NCBI GenBank assembly: GCA_965656375.1
Contig: CBFHKH010000001.1
Span: forward strand, 514,845 to 578,844
DNA from: Minisyncoccia bacterium
Lineage (GTDB): Bacteria > Patescibacteriota > Minisyncoccia > Phycocordibacterales > UBA9973
DNA: 64,000 nucleotides
Direction of reading: 5' to 3'
Shown one piece after another: positions 1,639-3,735 of the stretch. Below the pieces are notes generated by a model. It saw only the letters and a program-made list of their open reading frames with translations. It made no database searches and was not told the DNA's origin. The translations under genes were made by a program, and so were the position numbers. Positions within the stretch are counted from its first letter, which is position 1. Each line of letters starts with the position of its first letter.

Positions 1639-3735
1639 TTATAAAAATAGCTCTAGGAATGCTTTTTCGTCGAGGATTTTCACTCCGAGTTTTTGTGCGT
1701 CATCGTATTTGCTTCCTGGTTCGTCCCCTGCAACAACATATGAGGTTTTTTTAGAGACCGAACCGGAGACCTTCCCCCCAAGACTCGTAATCTTTTGCTT
1801 TGCTTCATCTCGCGACATCGATGAAAGCGTTCCAGTGAGGACAAATAGTTGCCCGGTAAGCTTTCCACCTGTGGTGACTTTGACTTTTTCTATCGTCACA
1901 CCATTTGCGAGTAGTTTTTCTATAAATGCGATATTTTGCTTCTCTCTCCAGTAATCATGTACGCTTTTCGATACTACCGGACCGATATTCTCTATACTGT
2001 TTATCTCATCTATAGTCGCCTTCATAATTTTTGAAAGAGTTCCGAACTGATTCGCAATGTCCTGAGCTGTTTGTTCTCCTACATGGAGGATCCCAAGCGC
2101 ATAGAGAAACCGCCAGAGTGAAACTTTCTTGTGAGCAGCAATTGATGAAATGATATTCTCTGCAGACTTCTCCCCAAAACGCTCGAGCCCAGAGAGGTCA
2201 GCAGACTCAAGAGTAAAAAGGTCAGCAGCATCACTAATGAGGCCTTCGTCTTTCAATCGATCGAGAATTTTGGGTCCGACAGTATAAATCTCAAATATAT
2301 TTACAAAATGCTGCATTCCCCTTCTATTCTTTGCAGGGCAATTCTTGTTTGTACAATAATACGCAACACTTGATTTACTCGAAGCGGACAAAGTTCTATG
2401 AGAAATAGTCTGGCCTCGACCTTCCAAAGAATTAGTCGAGGAGATCCGAGGACTTTTCGAAGAGGAGCTTTGCCCCTGGAGAGTCTCTCTTCTTTCCACT
2501 TCGGAGTTACACACCGGGCACTTAGTTGGCATCTTCCATTTCTTTTCTTTGCCCGTGCGCATTTTTACGAGCACTTCTACAACTTCTGGAATAACATCGC
2601 CTGCTTTTTGTATCACTACCGTATCCCCAATGCGAATATCGAGTCTCTCTATCTGATCCATGTTGTGAAGCGTCGCTTTAGAAACTGTTGAGCCAGCAAC
2701 AAGCGTCGGCTTGAAATGTCCAAGCGGGGTAAGGACACCAGTACGACCAACATTTACGGTTATATCAGTTACTACAGTTGTCGCTTTCTCCGCCGGATAT
2801 TTATATGCAATCATATACCGAGGAGCTTTACCTACGACACCAAGGGTATCTTGATGTTCCAATTCATCAACTGAAATGACGATCCCATCAGTACCGTATG
2901 GAAGTTTCTCCCGTATGGTTCCTACTTCATCGATAAAAGAAGAGAGTTCTTCGATTGTCTTTGCTTTCTTTTCATACGGGGCAACTTGAAATCCAAGTTT
3001 GCGCAAATACTCATGCTTTGTAGAATGGTGCGCTATCGTGCTTTCTTTCAGCACATCTACATCCCACGCAAAGAAATCAAGCCCGCGCTCCTGTACGATT
3101 TTTGGATCGAGCTGACGAAGCGACCCTGCAGCAGCATTGCGAGTATTAGCAAAGAGCGGCTTATTGTTTTTTTCTTGTATTTTGTTTAAGGTACGCCATG
3201 CACGCTTTGGCATTACAACCTCTCCGCGAACTTCAAGATGTGCGGGATACGGCGCAGTAAGTGAGAGCGGAATCGTCTCTACCATTTTCAGATTCTCTGT
3301 TATGTCTTCACCAATGAATCCATCACCGCGAGTTGCTCCTTTTGTAAAAACACCATTCGTATATATAAGAGATACCGCCAAACCATCGAGCTTGAGCTCA
3401 GCAAAATACGTATGCGGACTATCGAGCAACTTACTAATACGCGTTTCCCATTCTCCTACTTCTGCCACTCCGAATGCATCGTTGAGGGAAAGCATTCGAC
3501 GCGTATGGGTAACTTTCTTGAACGTATCGAGTGGTGTACCAGCAACGCGATTGATCGCGCTATTTGTATCAGCATAATGTGGGTACTTTTTCTCTAAATC
3601 CTTGAGCTCGCGAGTAAGGGATTCGTAGATATCGTCGGTAACATTCGGATTATTCTCTACATGATATTCGAACCGCAATCGAGAAATCTCTTGCCGAAGT
3701 TTCAGTATTCGGTTTTTAACATCGACTTCTTTCAT
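1639..3735 (-). CDS. ligA: NAD-dependent DNA ligase LigA, with a Ser-rich insertion inside the Zn-finger
   Basis: 698 aa with the adenylation motif ELKLDGLA and OB, HhH and BRCT-like regions. The CPVC...CTNKNC zinc finger is interrupted by about 35 aa of low-complexity sequence, [37 protein letters not shown]. Confidence 0.93.

Follow-up and report, generated by a model that had tools for sequence, protein, structure and literature searches.

The question raised by this locus is how one short repeat can lie within two unrelated essential genes without disrupting either of them. The window, that is, the whole stretch of 64,000 nucleotides (nt) analysed here (positions 514,845 to 578,844 of the forward strand of contig CBFHKH010000001.1, assembly GCA_965656375.1), belongs to a Minisyncoccia bacterium of the Patescibacteriota, and the repeat was identified in its ligA and truB genes. 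An initial annotation of the window had described it as a small in-frame insertion of about 60 bp, similar to the miniature inverted-repeat transposable elements (termed MITEs). The explanation favoured here, with moderate confidence, is that both repeats belong to a low-copy, non-autonomous family of palindromic elements of Paceibacteria-type members of the candidate phyla radiation (CPR, Patescibacteria), translated in frame.

The two copies of the window and their family

The copies and their parts comprise the following features, given in window positions:

1639 to 3735, minus strand: ligA, NAD-dependent DNA ligase of 698 amino acids (aa), an open reading frame (ORF) whose homologues carry the Pfam LigA domains; host of copy 1
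2380 to 2484, minus strand: copy 1, a 105-nt insert in the LigA zinc-finger spacer (about residues 418-452), read through in frame and delimited by codon comparison with the empty orthologue P0124/L207
2454 to 2484, minus strand: 5' arm of copy 1, degenerate, with the inner A-rich end TTCGAAAA; pairs imperfectly with 2380-2407
2437 to 2453, minus strand: conserved core 17-mer of copy 1, GTCCTCGGATCTCCTCG on the coding strand
2419 to 2436, minus strand: variable apical segment of copy 1, ACTAATTCTTTGGAAGGT, a segment that differs between families
2408 to 2418, minus strand: conserved tail of copy 1, CGAGGCCAGAC, the fully Watson-Crick variant of helix 3
2380 to 2407, minus strand: 3' arm of copy 1
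54041 to 54862, minus strand: truB, tRNA pseudouridine-55 synthase of 273 aa, an ORF with PF01509 in homologues; host of copy 2
54503 to 54590, minus strand: copy 2, an 88-nt perfect-stem hairpin insert at TruB residues 92-120 (approximately), read through in frame
54570 to 54590, minus strand: 5' arm of copy 2 (GTCGGAGAGAGGATTTGAAA followed by G)
54553 to 54569, minus strand: conserved core 17-mer of copy 2
54536 to 54552, minus strand: variable apical segment of copy 2
54525 to 54535, minus strand: conserved tail of copy 2, CTCGGCCAGAC
54503 to 54524, minus strand: 3' arm of copy 2, which encodes VSNPLSD

Both inserts contain the bipartite core GTCCTCGGATCTCCTCG ... C(T/G)(C/A)GGCCAGAC, with copy-specific complementary arms on either side. 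On the plus strand the exact 17-mer CGAGGAGATCCGAGGAC occurs at 2437-2453 and 54553-54569 and, with up to 3 mismatches allowed, nowhere else in the window; 0.05 matches are expected by chance, and two were obtained in 0 of 100 shuffles. A repeat search aligned 34 nt of the two copies at 88% identity without gaps, and with one 1-nt insertion or deletion allowed the similarity spans about 57 nt, from GAAA(A/G)GTCC to GGCCAGAC..TTTC. The sequences quoted in the initial annotation, including the near-identical core in both genes, are present where it had placed them. The element is longer than the length of about 60 bp given there (105 nt in ligA, 88 nt in truB). The inverted repeat at truB, given there as 19 bp, is indeed perfect and measures 20 bp (54503-54522 and 54571-54590); it had been tied to that copy only, and the ligA copy turns out to have the same architecture, with degenerate arms of another sequence. 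The different reading frames apply to the 5' half alone, where SPRISS is read in one copy and RSSDLL in the other; beyond the loop, whose length differs by 1 nt, both copies read ..GQT.. in one frame.

The 88-nt truB hairpin folds with -47 to -49 kcal/mol (z = -6.3 and -5.4) and is, after correction for guanine-plus-cytosine (GC) content, the most stable 100-nt fold of the window, the remaining top-ranked folds being intergenic terminators or tRNAs. The 131-nt fold of the ligA copy is not significant against shuffled sequence (z = -0.5). A covariance model (R1) built from 28 copies recognised the ligA copy with 52.1 bits (E = 3e-12) and the truB copy with 55.5 bits (E = 3e-13), found no others in the window and detected only 4 extra copies over 454 kb of fetched CPR loci. 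With 2 copies per 64 kb and these 4 the family is low-copy, and by extrapolation the order would be ten to thirty copies per genome of about 1 Mb. At the gathering threshold Rfam 15 matched only the tmRNA and three tRNAs in the whole window, and at E-values up to 10 the truB copy retrieved only generic microRNA-hairpin models, far below their thresholds. K-turn, hammerhead, twister and bulge-helix-bulge were considered by inspection and the consensus of none of them fits. A full-text literature search returned no description of the element or its core sequence in CPR, Patescibacteria or Parcubacteria. On the coding strand the core holds GGAUCUCCUC, which resembles the 3' end of 16S rRNA (GGAUCACCUCC, the anti-Shine-Dalgarno sequence), so that the opposite strand is Shine-Dalgarno-like (GAGGAGAUCC); this may be a coincidence.

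A scan for the 17-mer over one genome per prokaryotic species gave at least 117 loci. At least 63 of them are CPR loci, in assemblies other than that of the window, which bears out the proposal of a dispersed repeat and makes, with the two window copies, 65 copies in dozens of Paceibacteria-type genomes. The 63 loci listed come from assemblies of low-to-medium GC content labelled Paceibacterota/Paceibacteria, Nomurabacteria, Adlerbacteria, Vogelbacteria, Parcubacteria, 'Patescibacteria group', 'Candidatus Saccharibacteria' (third-party assemblies), 'bacterium' or 'uncultured bacterium'. The second block, C(T/G)(C/A)GGCCAGAC, was identified within 90 nt of the core at 63 of the 63; at one additional locus with a 'Saccharibacteria' label (L089) the tail is truncated. 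The remaining matches listed belong mostly to high-GC genomes of other phyla, namely actinobacteria (many of them Nocardia) and further non-CPR lineages; they have no tail block and are chance or unrelated. Viral contigs gave two matches, both of them high-GC chance matches without the tail, and no sign of a phage vector. To judge from these labels, the family would range over at least several Paceibacteria-type lineages.

On the coding strand a copy-specific 5' arm is followed by an inner arm rich in A (..GAAAA[A/G]) and by GTCCTCGGATCTCCTCG; next come a variable hairpin of 5-40 nt at the apex, the block CTCGGCCAGAC or, for example in ligA, CGAGGCCAGAC, an inner arm rich in T and a 3' arm complementary to the 5' arm. 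The copies listed have a median length of about 115 nt (range 78-145 nt). In a Vogelbacteria assembly (L071, 3660-3850) two oppositely oriented copies about 40 nt apart fill the dnaB-recR spacer, and the core of the first has diverged slightly (GTCTGGCCGAA..GAGGAGAACCGAGGAC).

Next to no probability is given to an origin of the repeat in chance similarity, in a conserved motif of the protein or in an artefact of assembly. The first is contradicted by the expectation given above and the second by the different peptides that one DNA sequence encodes in different frames. An artefact, including the assembly chimera that the initial annotation had named as a refutation, is contradicted by the presence of the element in dozens of independent assemblies from different groups and assemblers.

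Presence, orientation and decay at orthologous sites

The LigA set comprises 114 orthologues of 66-82% identity, the state of the element being read from the zinc-finger spacer, which separates the two pairs of cysteines:

Spacer empty (14-21 aa): 32 orthologues
Element intact, in the orientation of the window: 23 orthologues
Element intact, inverted: 5 orthologues
Variant, decayed or other insert: 54 orthologues

The spacer of the window LigA has 51 aa. At the DNA level it measures 153 nt against 54 nt in the empty orthologue P0124, whose site forms no hairpin (z = 0.2). TruB orthologues range likewise from empty through intact. Sequence comparison at both sites shows the element to be an insertion relative to close orthologues, as expected from the lineage-specific insertion that had been proposed.

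Both orientations were identified at orthologous positions. At one LigA position the window and L022 carry the element in the forward orientation, L027 and L085 in the reverse one; of the TruB copies, those of the window, P0002 and P0020 are forward and that of P0016 is reverse. In LigA P0153 the apical hairpin alone is inverted (GTCCTCGGA-CGAGGGAGGACGAGGAG-CCAGAC), and only fragments are present in LigA P0169 and TruB P0013. The DNA of P0169 resembles a decayed element, with a 5'-arm-like TCCTCGAAAAG and a tail-like GCTCGGGCCGGTC..TTTTCTCAG. Parsimony on the state of the element, on a neighbour-joining LigA tree built with the insert masked, gave at least 5 independent forward/reverse changes and at least 22 empty/filled changes, the latter no better than shuffled labels. 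This tree is shallow and star-like and may be unreliable, so that the counts are read only as 'patchy'. The patchiness at the LigA site would reflect either rapid gain and loss or allele exchange between related lineages.

Other recurrent inserts were identified in the zinc-finger spacer of LigA P0165, P0169, P0171, P0189, P0192, P0195 and P0235 and of P0183, P0191 and P0224-P0226, examples being ..SNSSKSTNISLLGNFSARPSRPAQVFSQNNSS.. and ..GKGLSSRSE..RGKSLR... An empty truB (L206) and an empty ligA (L207) come from one sample, SRR27639469, and possibly from one organism, which would then be a fairly close relative without the element at either site. The truB of P0047 (L201), counted as 'empty', carries at the insertion site, codons 95-105 (approximately), a palindrome with a 13-bp stem and no core, GCGGAGCCAGAAT-TTATAT-ATTCTGGTTCCGC (z = -5.2), which could be an excision footprint or a target hairpin.

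A metagenome scan with a TruB profile retrieved mostly distant orthologues, of 37-62% identity, without this core. In 20 of 52 distant CPR truB genes a strong hairpin (z < -3) of unrelated sequence was identified at the site of the element, between the TDTxD..G and QxYPxxSSK motifs (hairpin loci L173, L143, L139, L182, L125, L178/L179, L185, L134, L188 and L192). Several of these are perfect palindromes, for example the 21-bp perfect stem in L173, and some add no protein length. The truB loop would be either a hotspot where palindromes insert or a structure that is conserved. In L120, L153 and L155 the truB site carries a different double-hairpin repeat, translated as ..VIP.K.GIQ..LD.RLRGND.., which we take to be the signature of a widespread palindromic repeat in bacterial 'hypothetical proteins'.

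Genic copies, intergenic copies and the constraint on the core

Among the matches listed plus the window, 29 of 65 copies lie within ORFs of at least 240 aa. The host genes, recognised by conserved motifs in their translations, are LigA, PolA, DnaE, TrmD, a CCA-adding/HD enzyme, PheT, Ile/Val-tRNA synthetase, ArgRS, UvrC, Tgt, a XerC/D-like recombinase and TruB. None of the 29 has a stop codon in the host frame, and by inspection the conserved blocks are stop-free in all six frames. Each of the three forward frames is read (..KVLGSPR..ARPDH.., ..GPRISS..LGQT.. and ..SSDLLA..), and the reverse strand is read too (..SGRA..EEIRGL.. and ..NGLAE..RGDPRT..), its third frame (..TVWP..ARRSEDL..) being used in TruB orthologues. 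The core strand is the sense strand in 22 of the 29. Since the genic copies are always open in the host frame, the element is most simply taken to be transcribed and translated as a surface loop. In the AlphaFold model of TruB the mean predicted local distance difference test score (pLDDT) is 87.8, and values below 50 occur only at residues 95-115, the segment encoded by the element. In this model the insert appears tolerated as the only low-confidence loop of an otherwise confident TruB, in keeping with the tolerated in-frame insertion first annotated.

A very stable hairpin within essential genes would also suit an intron-like hairpin or a translational bypass element, removed or skipped before the protein is made. 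Precedents are the bulge-helix-bulge introns in archaeal cbf5, a TruB homologue, and the 'byp' elements of Magnusiomyces mitochondria. All 29 genic copies listed are open and in frame despite their varied length, frame and orientation; roughly estimated, the chance of this if there were no translation would be about 0.05 for each copy. Moreover, either strand can be sense, and the predicted fold is without bulge-helix-bulge geometry. As the 29 are open and in frame, splicing or bypass is excluded as far as sequence allows, and it is held to be extremely improbable.

The other 36 of the 65 copies fill short spacers between genes, with the core typically 30-60 nt from each flanking ORF. Examples of neighbours are SerRS and an FtsQ-like protein, UvrD/PcrA and KsgA, NusA and an H+-pyrophosphatase, and DnaB and RecR; the neighbours examined are distinct complete genes, hence there are no split genes among the 'intergenic' copies. 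An A-tract of at least 5 precedes the core in 21 of 34 intergenic and 3 of 29 genic copies among the matches listed, and a T-tract of at least 5 follows it in 19 of 34 and 0 of 29, respectively (p about 1e-6). To judge from sequence, the intergenic copies look like bidirectional terminators. The element was not called by a consensus terminator scanner, which misses it because of its internal loops. The ordinary terminators of the window are perfect or near-perfect palindromes of 15-22 bp between genes, with AT-rich complementary flanks and a short GC stem. Ordinary bidirectional-terminator palindromes that resemble core-less intergenic copies are found at:

24362 to 24395
34219 to 34261
45909 to 45957
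48009 to 48040
56119 to 56154

The strongest rival explanation, rated as unlikely, is that of a host-functional cis-element, acting as a bidirectional terminator or a processing/stability signal between genes, or as a translation-coupled attenuator or RNase target co-regulating housekeeping genes. It would account for the A-tracts and T-tracts beside the GC-rich core, rare in genic copies, for the snug fit of the intergenic copies between their ORFs and for the similar construction of the ordinary terminators of the window. It would account as well for the nucleotide-level conservation of the core, for the covariation of helix 3 (see below) and for the hairpins of unrelated sequence at the truB site of distant CPR, a classic signature of conserved structure. 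However, a terminator requires no specific 28-nt core, and copies were also identified between divergent genes (L015, L068, L100 and L108). Both orientations occur at one site, so that either strand is found in the mRNA; the element has decayed or been lost in many orthologues whose genes are intact; and the empty ligA site is without any hairpin. The failure of the simple terminator scan to call the element and the lack of an Rfam match also speak against a host function.

The 5' and 3' arms of a copy pair far better with each other than with the arm of another copy (median anchored score 24.5 vs 2, p = 1e-21). In orthologous copies the arms are very different yet self-complementary, as in truB of the window and P0002 or in L035 and L050. 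Judged by eye, L035 and L050 are about 80% identical in the flanking gene, about 50% in the arms and 100% in the core and loop. These alignments show arms that diverge at about the neutral rate and stay complementary, the complementarity being, on this evidence, actively maintained. Among TruB orthologues found by protein similarity, the third positions of conserved four-fold codons are 29-52% identical, that is, effectively saturated, and 29-35 of the 38 nt of the core region are identical. The core is kept where synonymous sites are saturated and is therefore constrained as nucleotide sequence. In P0002 both sides of helix 3 have changed in a compensatory manner, from CCTCG/CTCGG to CCCCG/CGGGG.

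The two strands of the element are not equivalent. With a scoring of mismatches that treats G.T and A.C alike, 95 arm mismatches are A.C on the core strand (G.T on the complement) against 44 of the reverse type (p = 2e-5). By class the counts are 36 vs 16 in forward genic, 52 vs 23 in intergenic and 7 vs 5 in reverse genic copies, the last being few and uninformative. As RNA the complementary strand folds more stably (mean -45.2 vs -38.1 kcal/mol), and the commonest helix 3 on that strand (CCGAG/CGAGG) contains tandem G.A/A.G pairs. Two readings fit this asymmetry: either the complementary strand matters when single-stranded, or selection weakens the hairpin in the mRNA.

The core strand also lies on the purine-rich strand at 45 loci and on the other at 20 (p = 0.004). 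This bias, and a core kept as nucleotides in any frame, in both orientations and in genes as well as spacers, would suit a DNA-level recognition site of a conserved CPR protein on double-stranded or extruded DNA (for example for DNA uptake by these naturally competent cells, chromosome organisation or replication), with the arms as a by-product. The DNA uptake sequences (DUS) of Neisseria and the uptake signal sequences (USS) of Haemophilus are likewise found in coding regions and in both orientations, form terminators as inverted pairs and are enriched within genes of genome maintenance. A putative type IV pilus/competence-like cluster adjoins ligA and counts in the same sense. Such a site is nevertheless considered quite improbable: one copy per 30-100 kb (approximately) falls far short of the density at which known uptake sequences occur, a site on double-stranded DNA leaves the strand-specific G.T excess and the covariation of helix 3 unexplained, and copies are left to decay in many lineages. 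The cluster itself, read from ORF translations directly downstream of ligA (window 3740-15182), comprises several putative prepilin-like ORFs, one that is putatively prepilin-peptidase-like, and others that would be PilC/PilT/PilB-like and PilM/N/O-like. It would be relevant if transformation-borne allele exchange spreads the element.

The favoured explanation, its proposed mechanism and known systems

Nearly identical units of 64-70 nt, with unrelated outer arms, were identified at different loci of one genome (L013/L072; L035/L075; L015/L066/L100), and from this distribution the element appears to be, or recently to have been, mobile. Three features go beyond the initial annotation, namely the two orientations at orthologous sites, the conservation of the core at nucleotide level and the intergenic position of about half of the copies.

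Several points weigh against the explanation by a mobile palindromic family. The case for mobility is drawn from the distribution of the copies, that for translation from reading frames and that for taxonomic breadth from assembly labels. The 'Saccharibacteria' labels look doubtful: the zinc-finger region of L022, from such an assembly, is nearly identical to that of the window, and the nearest named relatives of the window LigA carry the labels Nomurabacteria or Paceibacterota. A Pfam scan of 30 window ORFs revealed no transposase, recombinase or HUH enzyme, none could be tied to the element, and no direct repeat is evident at the one comparable filled/empty junction (ligA against P0124), where the alignment is uncertain. 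Part of the conservation of the core is ascertainment, the loci having been found by the exact 17-mer and the fetched TruB orthologues chosen by an element-like peptide motif, with decayed cores in many others. Finally, a purely selfish, decaying element explains neither a core that is intact despite saturated synonymous sites nor the repeated occupation of one LigA site (at least 22 changes).

If the favoured explanation holds, the unit copied or moved would be the core with its inner arms, and the core would be the recognition target of the copying or moving machinery, probably as a folded single strand. The long inverted arms would mediate a flip-flop inversion of the segment between them, and their complementarity would be maintained by correction within the palindrome (template switching, or gene conversion from one arm to the other). 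Copies that lie in essential genes would persist because only in-frame, stop-free and precisely bounded states are viable. Intergenic families may arise by insertion into the tip of pre-existing hairpins such as terminators, as suggested by a shared unit sharply bounded by locus-specific GC-rich inverted flanks; the core-less palindrome in truB of P0047 fits such an insertion. The empty ligA site is hairpin-free, so that a pre-existing hairpin is not the whole story and its role as universal target is contradicted.

An inverted target duplication (fold-back) of the host flank was considered and not adopted, outward extension of the palindrome being a partial possibility; comparison with the empty ligA site shows the two arms there to be inserted DNA. 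In support of fold-back, the VSNPLSD of the truB 3' arm aligns to a (E/K)N.(S)SD motif that is present too in core-less TruB orthologues, and the 11 nt at the 3' end of the ligA insert are complementary to the host sequence about 12 nt upstream of it.

A more doubtful proposal takes the 28-nt core as a functional single-stranded motif under purifying selection across Paceibacteria, which would make it a dispersed cis-regulatory or genome-maintenance signal; a kindred and no less unusual one is a transposase-independent module homing to hairpin tips. The former would be a fold, catalytic or protein-binding, that has tandem G.A pairs as well as fixed bulges and is dual-coded with essential replication, repair and tRNA-modification genes and with gene ends. 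The latter would spread by template switching into existing hairpin tips and flip like the flip/flop terminus of parvoviruses.

In-frame selfish DNA in essential genes has been seen as a peculiarity of Rickettsia, and a 2024 review only speculates that something similar "has occurred in other prokaryotes" (PMC10969869). Under the palindromic-family explanation such behaviour would now be found in a very different reduced-genome lineage, the CPR/Patescibacteria. The ultra-conserved centre, the freely evolving complementary arms and the orientation flips at orthologous sites would offer handles on its mechanism. Through the inserts CPR housekeeping proteins become longer and more diverse. In LigA orthologues that bear one, the zinc-finger Pfam domain often goes uncalled; inserts of this kind break domain detection and can mislead alignment-based phylogenies of the marker genes by which CPR are placed. 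One permissive TruB loop with unrelated perfect palindromes across many CPR lineages suggests that the insertion or persistence of palindromes in coding DNA is a general feature of CPR genomes.

Some other observations concern the rest of the window and one further locus. In purL (FGAR amidotransferase, window 29195-32986) 100-nt segments starting at 29711, 30571, 30671 and 31541 are unusually stable for their GC content (z = -2.9 to -3.8) and could be old, decayed palindromic inserts. The extra length of NDK (62569-63153) was checked as a further insert and is not palindromic. An RluD-like pseudouridine synthase (L088, 964-1699) contains two copies of a ..STSSGQA.. peptide, which may stem from another in-frame repeat. 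A Fic/DOC-family protein with an upstream HTH_17 protein, a toxin-antitoxin-like pair (window 51600-52306), adjoins the tmRNA (52418-52816) and smpB (52838-53281).

By analogy, the behaviour of the element appears closest to that of the Rickettsia palindromic elements (RPEs), palindromic repeats placed in frame in unrelated housekeeping genes of a reduced genome; these are about 150 bp long, homologous over the whole element between copies and each encode a conserved peptide (PMC10969869). Shared with RPEs are the small palindromic repeats, the reduced-genome lineage, the in-frame position in unrelated housekeeping genes with a translated and fold-compatible product, the additional intergenic copies and the lack of an own transposase; palindromic inserts in frame in unrelated protein genes, without disruption, are what was identified here. 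Unlike in RPEs, conservation is confined to a bipartite centre of 28 nt between copy-specific arms, reading uses all three forward frames as well as the reverse strand, the element is found inverted at orthologous sites, and its core is nearly invariant despite saturated synonymous sites. The likeness is one of behaviour and not of membership, given that host clade, length and architecture differ, and a sequence relationship is not expected. Primary references for RPEs, summarised by PMC10969869, are Ogata et al. 2000 (Science 290:347) and 2002 (Genome Res 12:808).

The size (under about 500 bp), the absence of a coded transposase and the 65 dispersed copies listed at unrelated loci, several per genome, are those of a MITE. 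Shared terminal inverted repeats are absent, the arms being unrelated between copies and the conserved part central. With this central conservation, the copy-specific arms, the low copy number and no evident target-site duplication at the one comparable junction, whose alignment is uncertain, the description 'MITE-like' of the initial annotation does not fit.

Repetitive extragenic palindromes (REPs) and bacterial interspersed mosaic elements (BIMEs) with their REP-associated tyrosine transposases (RAYTs, of the Y1/HUH type), and IS200/IS605, are similar in their imperfect palindromes, in the recognition, here proposed, of a folded single strand with bulges or mismatches and in a strand-specific signal; REPs are also non-autonomous and often at gene ends. 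According to PMC3733652, REPs are extragenic, high-copy sequences of 20-40 bp with a GTAG or CGTC tag. The element differs in that it starts with GTCC (GTCT on the other strand), measures 78-145 nt, is low-copy and is intragenic in 29 of 65 listed copies. No RAYT turned up in the scan of 30 window ORFs, which come from a 64-kb part of an 840-kb contig.

Pneumococcal SPRITE is named among the terminator-like mobile repeats (PMC10969869). Like SPRITE and the Correia elements of Neisseria, the intergenic copies are dispersed repeats with an A-tract, a GC hairpin and a T-tract; those elements lie between genes, whereas the present family also has in-frame copies within genes and is conserved in its central part. 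In Correia elements the terminal inverted repeats are shared and there is a TA duplication. The attC sites of integrons resemble the element as structure-defined hairpins in which unpaired or extrahelical positions are conserved and the terminal structure varies; recognition of one folded strand, which is proposed here, would be a further likeness. They have conserved boxes at the base of the stem and lie in cassette arrays beside an integrase, whereas here the conserved part lies mid-stem in a longer variable stem and the copies are solitary, in housekeeping genes.

Intragenic invertons are reportedly flipped by site-specific recombinases within a population (Chanin et al. 2024). Common to them and the element are intragenic inverted repeats flanking a segment that is found both ways and is open in frame both ways. 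Here, by contrast, inversion has been observed between genomes only, the inverted repeats lack conservation, and what is flipped is a dispersed repeat. DUS and USS have a density of about 1 per kb, against 2 copies over the 64 kb of the window and 4 more over 454 kb for the element, and introns and bypass elements are set apart by the frame and openness kept in 29 of 29 listed genic copies. What distinguishes the family is the set formed by a conserved centre with copy-specific arms, the reading of both strands and all three forward frames, and the flip-flop at orthologous sites.

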